This document shows positions 6,384 to 13,358 of a stretch of 64,000 bases of DNA, one piece after another. A model generated the notes under the pieces. It worked only from the letters and a program-made list of their open reading frames with translations, did not search any database and had not been told where the DNA came from. The stretch lies in the sequence record MW250785; one strand, 5' to 3'. A program made the position numbers and the translations under genes. This stretch comes from Escherichia phage UPEC03. Positions within the stretch are counted from its first letter, which is position 1; each line of letters opens with the position of its first letter.

Positions 6384-6857
6384 TTAGCCGTCATAACCAC
6401 CACCGCAACGAACATCACCTTCAATGAACAGTTCGCGGTTATCTCTCAGGAGATTGTATTTCTTTTCGAGTTCCGGCCCGAATGCGTCCGCGTCGTCATA
6501 CCAGTCATAGTTATAACTTCCGGTTTCCTCGTCGTATTCCGGTTCGTCGCCGCACTCATTGAAGTGAACGATTTTAACATCATCCAGATTCAGTTCTTTC
6601 AGCTTGTCCCAGATGCGGGTTATTTCGACGCTATTACATCCGAACGCTTCCAGTGTGATTGTACCGTCATCATGTACTTGAGGAACACCCCAGCGCGGAC
6701 GATGATGAATTTCGGTGATCATATCCATCAGCGATTCAACGTTTGACTCACCGTAAATCTTTGCAACTTCCTGTTCTTTACCAGGGCGGACAAGTCCTAT
6801 CCCGATAATGAAACTACTGCTTGAGCTATTGCTCACGAACCCAGAACGGATCTTCAT
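6384..6857 (-). CDS. Hypothetical protein, conserved-N-terminus family (MKIRSGFVSNSSSSSFI...), acidic/aromatic C-terminus
   Basis: N-terminal 17 aa identical to ORF 10292-10804 with only synonymous codon differences; C-terminus D/E/Y/W-rich. Confidence 0.55.
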   Translation of the reverse strand: MKIRSGFVSNSSSSSFIIGIGLVRPGKEQEVAKIYGESNVESLMDMITEIHHRPRWGVPQVHDDGTITLEAFGCNSVEITRIWDKLKELNLDDVKIVHFNECGDEPEYDEETGSYNYDWYDDADAFGPELEKKYNLLRDNRELFIEGDVRCGGGYDG

Positions 6858-7045
6858 CGCCTTGCCTCGTATTTCGCGTTATCTGCGATTTTCTCATGAT
6901 ACAGGTTGTATGACAACACCAGCGGGATACAAGCTACTATAAGCCCGATGATAGCCAGTTGATATTCGCGTTTATCGAACGCCATGAATGTAATCGTAGC
7001 GCCCAGAATAAACACACCTAACGCAATGATGAAGAATAATGTCAT
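6854..7045 (-). CDS. Small membrane protein (two predicted TM helices)
   Basis: 63 aa, two hydrophobic stretches; 4-nt overlaps with both neighbours. Confidence 0.45.
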   Translation of the reverse strand: MTLFFIIALGVFILGATITFMAFDKREYQLAIIGLIVACIPLVLSYNLYHEKIADNAKYEARR

Positions 7046-7668
7046 TTTGGCAGGGTATCCATTTCACGAGATTTTGCTTTCAGGATGTCAATCACAGTAG
7101 TCATCGCCTGTTCTACATCACCATCATAGTGAACCAGGAATGTTTTGTGAAGTCCCATGATCAGACGATTGATGATATAAGCCATTTCTGACGGTAACAG
7201 TTTACCATTCTGGCGATCGTACTTTCCAAACAAGCGGTAGAGTTCTGCGCTGTTGCCTGGCTTCTCAATGCTGAAATTATGCATCCCAGACAGAATACCA
7301 TCCAGATACAGAACAGTTTTGTTATCACTACGCAGGTGTCCGCCGACCTTGTAGTAGTTGCTGAATACATACGGTTTTTCGCGGATATCTTCGATATCGA
7401 AATCACCATGATCTTCGATGTTGCCAACATGGGCGAAGAAATGATGATCTTCCAGTTCGAGAAGGATTGCACCCTTTTTGTATGGGAATCCGACTAAATC
7501 GATCTGCCAGCCATTTTCACCGACAAAGACATCATCGACAACCACGAAATCCGGCAGCATAGGCGCGTATGCGTGGTTCTTTTCGTTGTTTTCACGATAG
7601 GCTTGTGGTTCGGACAGATACAGGATATCGCCTTTTACAACTTCACCCCAGAATACGTTACGTGACAT
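7042..7668 (-). CDS. Hypothetical protein (208 aa)
   Basis: ATG at 7668 preceded by GAGGA; the listed start at 7707 lies within the upstream terminator hairpin. Confidence 0.5.
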   Translation of the reverse strand: MSRNVFWGEVVKGDILYLSEPQAYRENNEKNHAYAPMLPDFVVVDDVFVGENGWQIDLVGFPYKKGAILLELEDHHFFAHVGNIEDHGDFDIEDIREKPYVFSNYYKVGGHLRSDNKTVLYLDGILSGMHNFSIEKPGNSAELYRLFGKYDRQNGKLLPSEMAYIINRLIMGLHKTFLVHYDGDVEQAMTTVIDILKAKSREMDTLPK

Positions 7669-7709
7669 ATTATTTTCCTCAATATGCCCCCTTTCGGGGG
7701 CGGTCATTG

Positions 7710-9956
7710 TTAGATTTTGACTTCTTTTTCTTCCAGGACGATTTCACATTCGAATGATGTGGTTTCCCAGACTTTCCAGAAATCGGATGGAATATTATCT
7801 TCTTTCGGAAGAATATCTTTTGCAGCGATAGAAACTTTGGTTTCTTCGAAGTCCAGATCCGCGAACCATGCATGGGCTACTACAACACCGTACATTACGC
7901 GACTTAAACGGGCATTCAGTTTACGGACTTCCTGAATCGTTGCCTTTGTCTGCTTATCAAGATACTCGACTACCTGATCTTTGTCAAGCGCATCCAGTTC
8001 AGATTTCACCTGATCGTAAGCCCACAGGATAATCAGGTCGCCGTTGTTCAGTTTCTTCTTACCTTCGTCACGTTTCGCGACGGTAGCCGCTACAGCAGGA
8101 AGGGAGGAAACACCCTTGACTTTCACGTTCAGTTCTTTCGACATGTAAACATCAGTCGATTCTGTGCGCTCAACCTTCGGAGAGAACCCGTAATCACGAA
8201 TATCCTGTTCAGACAGCCATTCACCCGCTGCATCACCAAAGCGCTGTTTCAGCCCTTCTGCGTTGCGCAGTCCGATCGCGTTGTCACGGAAGAACTTCAT
8301 AACCTTCTGACGGCCTTTCAGGATTTCCAGACGCACGTTATCAGTCACGAACTCTTTACCGCTTAACCCGCGAGTCATGCCACGGTTAACCAGAGGCAGA
8401 GAGGTAAAGTCTACCAGTACCGACATACGGTCATCACCGATTTTTTCCAGCGGCTTGATAGTCAGGCCAGAAGCGCGAAGGTTTTTCAGTGTCGGAATAT
8501 CAGTTTCCAGCGGCAGAACTTTCACGTTCACGATACCATCTTTAACGATGGTGAAGTTACGCACCTGCTTAGTTTCGATTTTTTCCGGCAGACCGAATTC
8601 TTTCTGTTTGCTTTCTGGGATAGTCACATACCCTTCCAGATCCGTGTTGATGGAAATGTTAGGACGGGAACTGTTACCCACCAGATGTTTAACCGATACT
8701 TTGGTTGTGGTCTGGGTAAATTTCGGTGTCCAGACTTCATGCGCTACCATTTGCGCCGCCAGTGCTTTACGTTCTTCTGGGATTGCAGCGTTTGCGATCT
8801 GTTCGGTCAGTTGATCCAGTGTATCATCTTCTTTCTGTACAGTCTGACGGCCTGTGCGGTTATACGCCCAGTGCTCAGAAGACAGGTCGATCACTGTGTC
8901 AGTTTGTGCCAGCAGTTCGAGCGCATCAACCAGAGTGAACGCGTTTTCGTCTGGAACCATGTTGTAATCAATACCATCAACGAAACGCTGTGATGGATCT
9001 ACAACAGCCTGTGCAATCAGGTCTTTCGCGTTGGAGTAGTCCTGTTTGGTAAAGCAGTTGTCATACGCCTTGATCAGACGGACATCACCCAGCTTTTGAA
9101 GCACTTTCCATGCCAGATCAGGGTTCATTGTGTGCAGTGCATGATAAAGCACGACATACAGAACTTGCTGTTCGCTGGCGATGTTCGGATCGAATCCGTC
9201 AACATCATTAATCGCGTTTTCACCCAGCGCCCAGATGTTTTTGATGTGTTCTGGAACTAGCACAACACCGTTTGCAGCGTTCAGGACATACACGCACCCT
9301 TCGTCCAGGTAGATCGCATGGGTAGCATCAGCAACTTTGACTTCGATACGCGCGGAAGTCTGCGCGGTGATGATTTCGTTAAATGCTGGTTCGTATGCGT
9401 CGAAACCTTCAACGAATTTGTGCAATGCGTTGGTTGCTTCTGCCATTTTTTCCAGCAGAGGACGGTTTACATAATAACCGTATTCCAGGAACGCGATACT
9501 GTTGAAAGTCAGTGGCAGAACCGCACACGCTTTCAGAATATCATCGGTACGCCAGCAGTTATCATAACCATCAGTCAGGAAGATCAGGCTGTTCAGGTTG
9601 CCGTTTTCAGATTGCAGATCGGTAGCGATTTCCGCAGCCAGATTCAACGGCTCAACAAAGCCAGTACAACCCGTAGGTTTCAGGTAACGGTCGATAGCCG
9701 CGCAGATGTTAGACAGGTCAGAGACATTGCTAACCTTCTCACCACGGAACACCGTGCCGTAATCGCCTTTGCTGGAGAAGTACAGGATCGAAACGGTGTC
9801 ATCCTGTTTAACCAGACTCGCCAGATTTGCTTTCAGGTGTTTACGGATCTTAGGCAGTTCGTTGTACATTGAACCGGATACGTCACACACGAAAACGTGG
9901 TTTGTCGGGGTTGGCTTCGATACAGCGTTTTTGAATTCGATATTTGTGATTGACAT
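7710..9956 (-). CDS. von Willebrand factor A (vWA) domain protein, 748 aa (CobT-like?)
   Basis: N-terminal MIDAS-like motif VFVCDVSGSM (DxSxS) and downstream FLTDGYDN; ATG start; followed by GC hairpin at about 7685-7705. Confidence 0.7.
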   Translation of the reverse strand: MSITNIEFKNAVSKPTPTNHVFVCDVSGSMYNELPKIRKHLKANLASLVKQDDTVSILYFSSKGDYGTVFRGEKVSNVSDLSNICAAIDRYLKPTGCTGFVEPLNLAAEIATDLQSENGNLNSLIFLTDGYDNCWRTDDILKACAVLPLTFNSIAFLEYGYYVNRPLLEKMAEATNALHKFVEGFDAYEPAFNEIITAQTSARIEVKVADATHAIYLDEGCVYVLNAANGVVLVPEHIKNIWALGENAINDVDGFDPNIASEQQVLYVVLYHALHTMNPDLAWKVLQKLGDVRLIKAYDNCFTKQDYSNAKDLIAQAVVDPSQRFVDGIDYNMVPDENAFTLVDALELLAQTDTVIDLSSEHWAYNRTGRQTVQKEDDTLDQLTEQIANAAIPEERKALAAQMVAHEVWTPKFTQTTTKVSVKHLVGNSSRPNISINTDLEGYVTIPESKQKEFGLPEKIETKQVRNFTIVKDGIVNVKVLPLETDIPTLKNLRASGLTIKPLEKIGDDRMSVLVDFTSLPLVNRGMTRGLSGKEFVTDNVRLEILKGRQKVMKFFRDNAIGLRNAEGLKQRFGDAAGEWLSEQDIRDYGFSPKVERTESTDVYMSKELNVKVKGVSSLPAVAATVAKRDEGKKKLNNGDLIILWAYDQVKSELDALDKDQVVEYLDKQTKATIQEVRKLNARLSRVMYGVVVAHAWFADLDFEETKVSIAAKDILPKEDNIPSDFWKVWETTSFECEIVLEEKEVKI

Positions 9957-10292
9957 TTAAATTTTCTCGTATTTGAATTTTTCTAAAATTTCGTTAACTT
10001 TATTGCTTACTGCTTCGACTGTACGATCACACCCGAACTTACGCGCCAGGAGTTCAACGTATTCATCCATCGTAGTGAGTTTGGATTCTGCAACGTCAAA
10101 CGCAAGCGCATACATTACTGGATTCAATACTCGAACGATTTGGAGAGTATACTCGTTCAGTTCAAAACGTTCAAGATATTTTCGCAGAGAAAATACATCA
10201 AACGGTGCGGGGCGATCCTGGCTAAAGGGGATCGACTCCCCTAATGCATAGCGAGGCATAACAACACAGACTTCGGTTTTTAACTTATCCAT
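9957..10292 (-). CDS. Hypothetical protein (111 aa)
   Basis: ORF immediately upstream of the vWA gene, adjacent stop/start. Confidence 0.45.
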   Translation of the reverse strand: MDKLKTEVCVVMPRYALGESIPFSQDRPAPFDVFSLRKYLERFELNEYTLQIVRVLNPVMYALAFDVAESKLTTMDEYVELLARKFGCDRTVEAVSNKVNEILEKFKYEKI

Positions 10293-10804
10293 CAGTGATG
10301 ACTCTTTGATGTGTGTTCAAGGTTACGGAAGATGTTTCCATGTTCCAGTTGAGTTCCGATCGGGCCGCATTCATCGGAGTACGTGAATTCATAGATAAAC
10401 ACGCCGTCCTGATTGCCATACTTCGTGTTGTACTCTTCATACAACCACATTTTGATCAGAGCGTCTTTCTCTTCTGTGTCCAGATCGTACCAGTCTCGCC
10501 CGTCATACGCAAGCGCAATTTGAGGGTTTGAACGGTAGCGGGTTTCTGCGCTTTCTTCGGTTTCCCAGTCATAGCGTTTATCGTCGTAGAACGATTCAAA
10601 GCTATTACCCAGATGACCGCCTAAGTCACGGTGAACATGATTGACCACTTCTTCCGCTGTTAACGGAGGATTGTAGTAACCGCAGTTCGGAACGCAATCA
10701 CCCATCATTTCGCGCAGGTTGTCGATATTAGTCGGATCTTTCGGGAACCGGACGATGAAACTACTTGATGAACTGTTGCTCACAAAACCAGAACGGATTT
10801 TCAT
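10292..10804 (-). CDS. Hypothetical protein, conserved-N-terminus family (MKIRSGFVSNSSSSSFI...)
   Basis: Paralog of 6384-6857 in the first 17 aa; divergent acidic/aromatic C-terminus. Confidence 0.55.
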   Translation of the reverse strand: MKIRSGFVSNSSSSSFIVRFPKDPTNIDNLREMMGDCVPNCGYYNPPLTAEEVVNHVHRDLGGHLGNSFESFYDDKRYDWETEESAETRYRSNPQIALAYDGRDWYDLDTEEKDALIKMWLYEEYNTKYGNQDGVFIYEFTYSDECGPIGTQLEHGNIFRNLEHTSKSHH

Positions 10805-11916: not shown

Positions 11917-12453
11917 TCAGTATGCAATGTTTAATTTTGCAAATTTACCAAAATGTTTTATCGCTTCCCGATCGTATGCTTTTGCAGCCTCGTATTCGTC
12001 ACGATAGGAACCGATATGTTTAACCTTGCCGTCAATCTTTATCTGTGCAATGTAACGTATTCCAGTAGGTTGATCACGTACACATACACCCTTGAATCGA
12101 CTGGTTGCTACTCTTCGTTTAGTCCGGTTCTGACAGTTTCGGGATTGATCCGCTTCACGCAAGTTATCAATCCCGTCGCCAGCCTCAACACCATTTTTAT
12201 GATCAATCACATCAGGCAGTTTTCCGGTTGCAACGTAGTAGATGATTCGATGACGTAGATATCCTTTGCTTTTGAAATAAACGCGGGTATATCCTCCTTT
12301 AATCTTCGAACCTACTTCCTTTCCGATCAAGTCAGAACGTTTGTGTGACGTTCGTATAATTGTCCCCGTTTGTATATCAACAGAAACAGTTTTAAGGAAT
12401 TCGTCAATTCCTTTCTGTTCTTCTTCGATTGTTCTTAGTCCGTTGTGTGACAT
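11917..12453 (-). CDS. HNH endonuclease with C-terminal AP2-like DNA-binding domain (homing-endonuclease-like)
   Basis: HNH-type motif ...VIDHKNGVEAGDGIDNLREA...; AP2-like FKGVCVRDQPTGIRYIAQIKIDGKVKHIGSYRDEYEAAKAYD; paralog at 26069-26593; overlaps Dcm stop by 19 nt. Confidence 0.75.
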   Translation of the reverse strand: MSHNGLRTIEEEQKGIDEFLKTVSVDIQTGTIIRTSHKRSDLIGKEVGSKIKGGYTRVYFKSKGYLRHRIIYYVATGKLPDVIDHKNGVEAGDGIDNLREADQSRNCQNRTKRRVATSRFKGVCVRDQPTGIRYIAQIKIDGKVKHIGSYRDEYEAAKAYDREAIKHFGKFAKLNIAY

Positions 12454-13358
12454 AACACCTTCTTGATTTGTTTTGCTATAGCCTCGATTACTGGTATTGA
12501 AACAGAATTACCTGCTTGTTTATACGCTTGCATCTTGCTTTTGTTGATAATAAACGAATCTGGGAAACCCTGCAAACGAAAACACTCACGGGGAGTAAGT
12601 CTTCGGGGGTTCTTTCCTTCCTGCAATACCAGACATTGAACACCATCTTTATAGTAATTTGCAGTGATAGTCCCAGTGTGCGTAGAATCGCTTGTGACGG
12701 CCTGATAACCGAAACCCTTACCGTTTGCCTTATTTCGTTCCTTACGCTCTCTAAAGCCCTTCCATGCGTTATCTGACAGGGTGAACGAATCATCAGCATC
12801 TTCGAGGATGTCGCCTACGCGTGTAGGGGTACGCGGGGGAACCGGAAACGAAAAGAATACATCATCCAGGAAGCAGACAATAAACACGCGTTCCCGTCTT
12901 TGGGGTAGTCCGAAATCCTTTGTGTTCAGGCGTTGATAGAATACGTTATATCCTTCGGCCTCCAGAAGCCCGTAAATCGTTTTAAACGTCTTCCCCTTGT
13001 CATGGGTTAGCAGTTCAGGCACGTTCTCAAAGAACAACACACGGGGCTTTTTAGCGCGTATAATGCGGAGGATTTCGAAGAACACCGTACCGCGTACATC
13101 ATCAAAGCCCAGTTTCAATCCGGCTTTACTGAACGCCTGACACGGGAACCCCGCGAGCAGGATATCATGATCAGGTACTTTGTTTTCATCAATGGCGAAT
13201 AGATCACCCTGTAGGTTATCATCGCCCCAGTTTTCGATATATGTTTGCTGTGCGAACTTGTCGATTTCAGACGTTAAAAGGCATTCGACACCGCCGAACG
13301 CCTTATCAAATCCTAATCGAACCCCGCCCACACCAGCGCAGAGGTCAATTATTTTCAT
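12435..13358 (-). CDS. DNA (cytosine-5)-methyltransferase, Dcm-type
   Basis: Motif I DLCAGVGG, motif IV GFPCQAFS, ENV motif FFENVPEL; 307 aa. Confidence 0.85.
   Translation of the reverse strand: MKIIDLCAGVGGVRLGFDKAFGGVECLLTSEIDKFAQQTYIENWGDDNLQGDLFAIDENKVPDHDILLAGFPCQAFSKAGLKLGFDDVRGTVFFEILRIIRAKKPRVLFFENVPELLTHDKGKTFKTIYGLLEAEGYNVFYQRLNTKDFGLPQRRERVFIVCFLDDVFFSFPVPPRTPTRVGDILEDADDSFTLSDNAWKGFRERKERNKANGKGFGYQAVTSDSTHTGTITANYYKDGVQCLVLQEGKNPRRLTPRECFRLQGFPDSFIINKSKMQAYKQAGNSVSIPVIEAIAKQIKKVLCHTTD

Follow-up and report, generated by a model that had tools for sequence, protein, structure and literature searches.

A conserved serine-rich N-terminal tag on otherwise unrelated phage proteins travels with a radical SAM/SPASM enzyme

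Anaerobic sulfatase-maturating enzymes (anSMEs) are radical S-adenosylmethionine (SAM) enzymes with SPASM domains that modify Ser or Cys in a folded protein substrate. In triceptide and FxSxx-COOH systems, a single radical SAM enzyme with a SPASM-type domain is encoded beside one or more substrates that share a short motif, much as in the loci described here. Triceptides are defined by a crosslink from an aromatic residue to a C-beta atom, made on aromatic-X-X3 motifs, and a residue of the synthase near X3 sets its specificity (PMC11499958); FxsB, the enzyme of the FxSxx system, has been reported to form cyclophanes (PMC10114670). FxSxx peptides and radical SAM-SPASM enzymes are also attached to conflict systems built on von Willebrand factor A (vWA) and MoxR proteins (VMAP systems; Kaur et al. 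2020, PMC7159879). Here we examine two small open reading frames (ORFs), ORF-A and ORF-B, of Escherichia phage UPEC03, a T4-like phage of the RB43/Karamvirus group. Both lie in a stretch of 64,000 nucleotides (sequence record MW250785; hereafter the window) that is 98.6% identical to Enterobacter phage EC-W1 and to Cronobacter phages leE and leN, and both begin with the same 17 residues. We think it rather likely that this N-terminal tag is where a phage-encoded radical SAM enzyme with a SPASM/twitch domain binds and modifies many proteins, because a radical SAM gene accompanies co-oriented arrays of tagged genes whose common, apparently exposed tail covaries with the enzyme clade.

The two N-termini are identical at 17/17 residues, as the original prediction for this DNA had noted. 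Their coding segments differ at 9 bases in 51 nt, affecting 7 codons (AAG/AAA, GGG/GGT, TTC/TTT, AAT/AAC, AGC/AGT, AGC/TCA and ATT/ATC), and every change is synonymous; AGC/TCA is a switch between the two serine codon boxes. The 51 nt directly after the tag are 39% identical between ORF-A and ORF-B, and a six-frame scan of the window finds the tag solely at these two starts. Across 285 distinct genes headed by the exact tag, every Ser position shows all six Ser codons, Arg is encoded from both of its codon boxes, and the third positions are only 47% identical. This codon spread indicates selection on the peptide, which the original prediction had proposed from the synonymous changes between the two ORFs. 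Recent duplication or gene conversion of the tag was rejected, as synonymous differences are near saturation across the family. A shared start could also have arisen from a wrong choice of start codon. GAGG lies ~8-10 nt upstream of the ATG of both ORFs, the gene upstream of each ends 4 nt inside it, and the stop of ORF-B overlaps the start of the next gene; we therefore consider the start codons sound. The predicted N-terminal tryptic peptides are SGFVSNSSSSSFIIGIGLVRPGK for ORF-A and SGFVSNSSSSSFIVR for ORF-B. Beyond the tag, the claim that the two proteins diverge completely is nearly right: BLASTP aligns 18 residues, and only a profile-profile comparison (hhalign) goes further, aligning 35 columns that run from the tag through strand 1 into the first part of helix 1.

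The tag, a 16-residue start of the form M-K-x-R-x-G-F-V-(S/T)-N-S-S-S-S-S-F followed by two hydrophobic residues, heads a large family. Searching 1.84 billion representative proteins with a profile of the ORF-B family, we found 9,589 clusters (50% identity) at E 0.001 or better, 622 of them at 1e-30 or better. The tag, which the original prediction had suggested seeking in other T4-like genomes, is not peculiar to UPEC03. A degenerate DNA pattern of the tag matched at least 120 stretches of a viral-contig collection, mostly on contigs of 50-325 kb; the 124-125 tag loci used below are among the matches listed for this pattern, plus earlier loci. From 125 loci we extracted at least 243 distinct complete tagged proteins of 33-321 residues (median 131), which form at least 75 BLAST clusters of cargo once the tag is removed, zinc-ribbon types among them, and many of these clusters carry distinct conserved signatures of their own. 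When 18 representative cargo domains were compared with Pfam, there was one real match, the STAS-like DUF4325 in a single protein, and representative tagged proteins matched PHROGs solely at the N-terminus of phrog_7397. Tagged genes may stand side by side: one phage contig of 188 kb has four, another has twelve inside 14.5 kb, and a single phage may have as many as 13 paralogs. The notion of a conserved N-terminal module on variable cargo, in a polymorphic family, is thus borne out. The family is generally acidic (median isoelectric point (pI) 4.73).

In enzyme neighborhoods searched with a relaxed pattern, conservation is 98% at F7, 95% at V8, 99% at each of S9, S11 and S12, 93% at S13, 83% at S14 (where T or A is tolerated), 97% at S15 and 96% at F16; G6 is invariant in a homology-based alignment. 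The tag stands at residue 1 in 186 of the 218 distinct tagged ORFs that adjoin an enzyme gene. Two of the arrays have unusual company. The contig with twelve tagged ORFs (L004; 13589-14510 and 3636-5168) carries a vault-like combination, a major-vault-protein-like gene (Vault_3, MVP_shoulder) together with a DUF2828/DUF7788 vWA-like gene. In the 188-kb phage contig (L002/L003, 15771-16567), the four tagged ORFs are followed, ~6 kb downstream of the last one, by genes for ThiF (E1-like) and ThiS (ubiquitin-like), which are ~11 kb from the radical SAM gene.

We clustered the neighboring ORFs of 124 tag loci and found a single recurrent gene from outside the family: a radical SAM/SPASM gene, present at 47 loci, the next most frequent neighbor being present at no more than 9. 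The reverse test used 80 viral enzyme loci with 10-kb flanks. Tagged ORFs lie within 10 kb at 64 of these 80 loci and at 64 of the 72 outside the T4-like group; the 16 loci that lack them include all 8 T4-like genomes, where the tagged genes are ~20 kb off. All 240 tagged ORFs at the 80 loci are on the strand of the enzyme, and a locus has as many as 13. When the motif pattern is loosened, tagged ORFs are present at 65 of the 72 non-T4 loci, the nearest at a median distance of 449 bp to the enzyme gene (≤1 kb in 48 of the 65), and 214 of 259 tagged ORFs are downstream of it. The association extends to isolates: among 50,697 isolated-phage records, the enzyme occurs in 173, ORF-A in 173 and ORF-B in 174, essentially the same genomes, and the only distant isolate that has the enzyme, Vibrio phage D479, carries five tagged ORFs on the enzyme's strand, within 12 kb. 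A scan of 100,044 representative bacterial and archaeal genomes with the tag pattern gave just 58 stretches, mostly metagenome-bin contigs, and the enzyme is nearby in 33 of them. No protease, transporter/exporter or second enzyme recurs near tag or enzyme loci, which fits an intracellular protein modification. The suggestion of a processing signal holds in spirit, in that the tag co-occurs and covaries with a radical SAM/SPASM maturase. Two further features of these loci were seen in passing. In the 258-kb genome of Vibrio phage D479 (L207, 13136-13864), the 3' end of the radical SAM gene adjoins a homing endonuclease gene of the opposite strand, and the five tagged ORFs lie upstream. In several large phages (L138, 5016-7550, and other radical SAM loci), ORFs resemble by eye nicotinamide phosphoribosyltransferase and nicotinamide mononucleotide adenylyltransferase/Nudix proteins of NAD salvage.

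If the enzyme acts on the tag, then the two may vary together. A divergent enzyme clade, 26-27% identical to the enzyme of the window, is found solely with tags that have Thr at position 9, and all other enzymes solely with Ser9 tags. This covariation argues for direct contact between enzyme and tag. It bears on the idea that the tag acts as a degron or binds some host machine (a protease, chaperone or clamp, for instance), and that the linkage to the enzyme is incidental. An exposed, basic-then-polar N-terminal peptide on many proteins that are probably early or middle would suit such a role. Neither the adjacency at 64 of 72 loci nor the covariation can be explained in this way, however, and the hosts implied by tag-bearing contigs (enterics, Vibrio, anaerobes and candidate-phyla bins) are so extremely diverse that an invariant host partner is unlikely; we regard a degron or host-binding peptide as very unlikely. 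Many tag-bearing contigs of 100-375 kb are binned as candidate phyla radiation (CPR) bacteria, DPANN or Asgard archaea (L208-L265); these are probably mis-binned large phages from anoxic habitats.

The enzyme of the window was located by tblastn with 47 tag-linked radical SAM genes, which match it at E as low as 1e-101 and 35-48% identity. Its product scores 24.5 bits against Pfam SPASM (cut-off 21.5) and 24.6 bits against TIGR04085, just below the cut-off of 27, and it matches phrog_7293, which has no assigned function. The family, of at least 1,639 clusters, has generic public names (‘radical SAM protein’, ‘SPASM domain-containing protein’), and the KP15 annotation calls its member hypothetical; a bacterial relative matches Pfam Radical_SAM at E 1e-14. 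The canonical SAM-cluster motif is CxxxCxxC. Aligned across 20 homologs, C71, C79 and C82 of the SAM cluster are kept, with the spacing C-x7-C-x2-C in the window, and the auxiliary-cluster motif CX9-15GX4C is present and conserved as C288-x12-G301-x4-C306. The second auxiliary cluster of a full SPASM domain (CX2CX5CX3C) seems to be missing. As only four C-terminal cysteines are conserved (C263, C288, C306 and C358), the alignment suggests a single auxiliary cluster, that is, a twitch-like enzyme. Among the 20 members, NCBIfam gave sub-threshold matches only (W-cofactor maturase, NirJ2, MftC, StsB, PqqE, WgkB and PapB), which are no family assignment, and the sole solved relative of the enzyme profile by sequence is the twitch region of BtrN, a weak match (E 0.014). 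The enzyme class fits a maturase, because the cluster cysteines and the CX12GX4C motif are present and the weak matches are only to peptide or protein maturases and to BtrN. The first cluster loop ranges from the canonical x3 to x17 among homologs, which is unusual for the superfamily.

Radical SAM enzymes also serve as activases, and the tag could in principle be a glycyl-radical site. The fingerprint of glycyl radical enzymes is RVxG[FYW], which R-x-G-F-V in the tag loosely resembles, and G6, the would-be radical site in R-x-G-F, is invariant; the tagged proteins would then be small radical carriers. The Arg-Gly spacing of the tag is, however, one residue shorter than in the fingerprint, and only single members of the 20 enzymes match NrdG, below threshold. 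Moreover, the known glycyl-radical activases lack, to our knowledge, the SPASM/twitch domain that this enzyme has, and an exposed tail cannot shield a glycyl radical. We give this explanation very little credence.

We turn to the bodies of the tagged proteins. ORF-A and ORF-B have no match in Pfam, NCBIfam or PADLOC, nor, by sequence, among solved structures in the PDB. ORF-B belongs to phrog_7397, a family without assigned function, which ORF-A matches over its first 20 residues only. Homologs of ORF-B keep the N-terminus and the C-terminal signature listed in Table 1, separated by an insert of very variable length; homologs of ORF-A keep the N-terminus and a signature of their own (Table 1). 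AlphaFold (AF2) models of ORF-A and ORF-B are confident, with predicted local distance difference test (pLDDT) scores of 84 and 85. In both, residues 1-10 or 1-11 have pLDDT <50 and directly precede the first beta-strand, which begins at residue 12-13; in these models the first ~11 residues of the tag are thus probably an exposed tail. The folds of the two models differ from each other, fold searches match neither to a known enzyme fold or a known DNA mimic, and Foldseek against BFVD returned nothing at E 0.001 or better. The acidic character claimed by the original prediction is clear, with pI values of 4.49 and 4.77 for the two ORFs. Strong acidity is a feature of DNA mimics of the Ocr/ArdA type, which the same prediction had raised as a possible function; no resemblance to these anti-restriction proteins was found by fold or sequence. 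A MIDAS-like (metal ion-dependent adhesion site) reading of N-x-S-x-S in the tag was also rejected, since in the AF2 models the strand begins only past the Asn, and a vWA fold would not fit into proteins this small.

The models also bear on whether the tag is a separate module at all. It could be part of the catalytic or ligand-binding core, a Ser-rich plus acidic loop, of one very divergent superfamily, with the enzyme linked to it in some other way, for example through synthesis of a cofactor or small molecule. In both models SSSSF and the two hydrophobic residues form strand 1, the hhalign alignment reaches 35 columns, and in many subfamilies a later strand leads into an acidic S/N-D-E-x-G motif, with a C-terminus rich in Gly. 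Against this, nothing is alignable beyond the 35 columns, the two models differ in fold and match no known enzyme fold, and the cargo includes zinc ribbons and a STAS-like domain. The class of the enzyme, that of peptide or protein maturases, and the direct contact for which the Ser9/Thr9 covariation argues likewise speak against a shared core, which we consider unlikely.

In the mechanism we favor, that of one maturase with many substrates, the ~11-residue tail would be exposed ahead of the first beta-strand of each tagged protein, where the enzyme would bind it and modify it by means of a 5'-deoxyadenosyl radical. One enzyme would mature all the tagged proteins of a phage, which are small, mostly acidic and unrelated in body: two in this T4-like phage (ORF-A and ORF-B) and up to 13 in other large phages. 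The tagged proteins would be its substrates, and the modification would be centered on F7-V8-S/T9. Our leading guess is a -2 Da change at these residues, either an aromatic-to-C-beta crosslink of the triceptide/FxS type or an oxidation of Ser/Thr. Both the crosslink (triceptide-like) and the oxidation (anSME/BtrN-like) are leads drawn by analogy.

The analogy with triceptides and FxsB substrates comes from their aromatic-X-X3 (FxSxx) motif, which recurs in the tag as F-V-S-N-S, and the X3-specificity of triceptide synthases fits the covariation at position 9. Unlike FxSxx precursors, the tagged proteins are predicted to fold, have 33-390 residues, carry the motif at residues 7-11, and have neither a leader nor a C-terminal core; NCBIfam gave no FxSxx-COOH hit. 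Among the 20 enzyme members NCBIfam found no FxsB or XyeB match, and WgkB matched 2 of the 20, far below its cut-off. The systems differ from cyclophane systems further in being viral, in having neither protease nor exporter, and in that the four C-terminal Cys suffice for one auxiliary cluster. Features of classical clusters for RiPPs, peptides that are ribosomally made and then modified post-translationally, are likewise missing, as no protease or transporter recurs near the enzyme and the tagged proteins are predicted to fold. anSME and BtrN are radical SAM dehydrogenases; the likeness to them is that the tag is Ser-rich with Ser or Thr at position 9, and that BtrN supplies the weak twitch match. 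On the other side, the (C/S)-x-(P/A)-x-R motif of sulfatases is missing from the tag, and the enzyme matched no anSME model.

Several observations weigh against a maturase acting on the tag. It is their gene context that marks the tagged proteins as putative substrates, and a reaction at residues 7-9 leaves the near-invariance of the serines S11-S15 without an explanation. The low pLDDT of the invariant segment may reflect a missing covariation signal instead of real disorder. Profiles of the known cyclophane synthases and of anSME give no match to the enzyme family, which seemingly has only one auxiliary cluster. The 10-kb flanks are free of tagged ORFs at seven of the 72 non-T4 radical SAM loci (at 8 under the stricter pattern), and in UPEC03 the enzyme gene is ~20-24 kb from ORF-A and ORF-B, not adjacent. 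Finally, the Ser9/Thr9 covariation comes down to one split in the phylogeny and not to repeated independent events.

Short conserved N-terminal peptides on otherwise unrelated proteins have a precedent in T4, whose capsid targeting sequence stands on internal proteins, and the original prediction had suggested capsid targeting or secretion. A signal for capsid packaging, secretion or a compartment would account for a constant peptide on variable cargo, and the array in L004 lies beside the major-vault-protein-like and vWA-like genes. The tag has no sequence resemblance to the T4 capsid targeting sequence, however, and contains no (L/I)xE cleavage site, no acidic residue and no hydrophobic core of the kind found in signal peptides. 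The T4 sequence is on late virion proteins, and the tagged genes are outside the late/structural module: ORF-A and ORF-B are part of a minus-strand block of closely packed genes, opposite the baseplate genes, KP15 has middle promoters annotated only in the minus-strand block that holds its enzyme gene, and arrays in other phages are beside nucleotide-metabolism genes, not structural ones. The literature on virion proteomics of KP15 and KP27 yielded nothing of use here. As a targeting signal would also leave the enzyme linkage and the covariation unexplained, we consider it highly improbable.

The tagged proteins are small and acidic, and these same positions, together with the KP15 promoters, lead us to infer that they are early- or middle-expressed effectors directed at the host. 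A promoter consensus scan for expression timing gave 14 sites, against 14.5 expected from shuffled sequence, and the promoter-based timing argument was dropped. Some GenBank records make ORF-A a head-tail adaptor. Its residues 77-148, the acidic C-terminal half, do match phrog_132 (‘head-tail adaptor’) at E 4.5e-9, and the annotation has spread in PP889464 and others. We rejected this identity, as the match is partial and no adaptor is among the structural neighbors; ORF-A is almost certainly something else. In PP889464, PP889458 and PQ657798, automated PHROG-based annotation calls ORF-A homologs ‘head-tail adaptor’ and the vWA gene ‘minor tail protein’; both labels look wrong.

The enzyme-tag pair is not confined to phages. 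At least nine bacterial loci have one tagged protein and an enzyme resembling the divergent clade (clade 2-like) within a conserved operon; loci of Lachnobacterium bovis DSM 14045, Veillonella parvula SKV38 and Acetatifactor muris DSM 23669, all of them isolates, are among these. The bacterial tagged protein has 137 residues and begins MKIRKGFVTNSSSTSF. The operon also encodes a metallo-beta-lactamase-fold protein that PADLOC matches as LmuA/Avs1a-like (E 9e-62 and 7e-47) and a ~929-residue STAND protein with trypsin and NACHT domains that is Avs2-like (E 1e-11); the remaining genes are those for a 143-residue protein, a 313-residue protein and the radical SAM/SPASM enzyme. In L. bovis the operon adjoins an Abi_2 gene. 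The operon looks like an undescribed Avs-type defense system that uses the same enzyme-tag pair. As part of an operon with an Avs-like STAND gene, the pair ties the tag to antiviral immunity, and its presence there suggests that it is used on both sides of the phage-host conflict; no STAND gene is present in the phage tag and enzyme loci or in the window.

A validated Avs2 operon of Klebsiella pneumoniae, whose product is an antiviral STAND NTPase, requires Avap1, a radical SAM protein, and Avap2, a small binding protein (PMC11564622). The Avap1 substrate is unidentified and non-nucleotide, and Avap2 is DUF6375-like (PMC11564622). By operon make-up this resembles the bacterial operon described here, in which a STAND gene likewise accompanies a radical SAM gene and a small accessory gene. 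The two differ in that no tagged protein matches the DUF6375 Pfam family, and in that the Avs2 STAND protein has an Mrr nuclease at its N-terminus, where the one here has a protease. More speculatively, and in our view rather improbably, a virus-wide modification such as a Phe7-to-Ser/Thr9 cyclophane would be installed on up to a dozen unrelated effectors per phage, with the same pair at work in the bacterial Avs-like STAND operon and the phage arrays serving as decoys, as inhibitors or as stolen parts in an arms race about that tail.

The tag, the tagged family and the enzyme family have no description in Pfam, NCBIfam release 20, PHROGs, PADLOC or the searched literature, which also offered nothing relevant on radical SAM/SPASM systems of phages. 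A radical SAM maturase with several substrates is a known kind of system; new here are the folded proteins, the N-terminal tag, the viral arrays and the twitch-like enzyme clade. If our proposal is true, thousands of ‘hypothetical’ phage proteins would be united by one modification and one uncharacterized enzyme family, and the rare RiPP-style logic of one maturase for many substrates would operate on folded proteins inside a virus. The bacterial version may bear on the unexplained radical SAM accessory protein of the Avs2 operon, and the tag could serve as a portable handle for enzymatic protein modification. The proposal is directly testable, and the culturable phages RB43, RB16, KP15, the Karamvirus group and Vibrio phage D479 have the enzyme with just two to five putative substrates.

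Finally, we consider the genes around ORF-A and ORF-B (Table 1). The original prediction had placed the two ORFs around a vWA gene cassette as its organizing feature. This did not hold up: the vWA gene travels with the tag solely in the RB43/Karamvirus/Slopekvirus group, and a different, DUF2828 vWA-like gene adjoins tagged ORFs in two other lineages. We therefore rejected vWA as a core partner; it is at most a lineage-specific add-on. The systems of Kaur et al. share the theme of a vWA protein, a small, rapidly diverging FxSxx-motif protein and a radical SAM-SPASM enzyme, and in UPEC03 two F-V-S-N-S proteins flank the vWA gene and the phage encodes the enzyme. By this analogy, the link between vWA and tag could still be meaningful. 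The motif is C-terminal in those systems and N-terminal here, however, and by Pfam none of the six ORFs of 6384-10804 matches a MoxR ATPase, a metallopeptidase or an AP-ATPase.

Table 1. Coordinates of the tagged ORFs, the enzyme gene, neighboring genes and bacterial operons. Positions are those of the window unless a locus is named.
Feature	Location	Strand	Remarks
ORF-A	6384..6857	minus	157 aa; tagged; ‘...GDEPEYD...YNY...GGGYDG’ subfamily (cluster 5)
Tag of ORF-A	6807..6857	minus	codons 1-17, MKIRSGFVSNSSSSSFI
ORF, 63 aa, probably membrane-spanning	6854-7045	minus	function unassigned
ORF, 221 aa	7042-7707	minus	function unassigned
vWA-domain protein, 748 aa	7710..9956	minus	Pfam VWA families; MIDAS motif DVSGS; between ORF-A and ORF-B
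ORF, 111 aa	9957..10292	minus	start overlaps ORF-B stop (TGATG)
ORF-B	10292..10804	minus	170 aa; tagged; ‘YSDExG...EHGNIFRN...SHH’ subfamily (phrog_7397, cluster 0)
Tag of ORF-B	10754..10804	minus	codons 1-17, MKIRSGFVSNSSSSSFI
Radical SAM enzyme with SPASM/twitch auxiliary-cluster domain, 384 aa	30377..31531	minus	tblastn, Pfam SPASM, alignment
Bacterial operon	L216 729-7500; L262 2984-9586		L. bovis DSM 14045 (L216); V. parvula SKV38 (L262)
Further bacterial operon loci	L212, L219, L221, L249, L251, L253, L256

The KP15 annotation marks the MIDAS site in the vWA protein. The two ORFs between ORF-A and the vWA gene match phrog_7160 and phrog_7309. In a second lineage with a vWA-like gene directly adjoining the system (L176/L178, 6682-11053, and L026), the order is a DUF2828 vWA-like gene, a 390-residue tagged ORF and the radical SAM gene. 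Beyond ORF-B in the window, 12435-13358 is, by annotation in relatives, a cytosine-5 DNA methyltransferase gene, and its 3' end is overlapped by a 178-residue ORF (11917-12453) that by eye looks like a homing endonuclease of the HNH/AP2 type.

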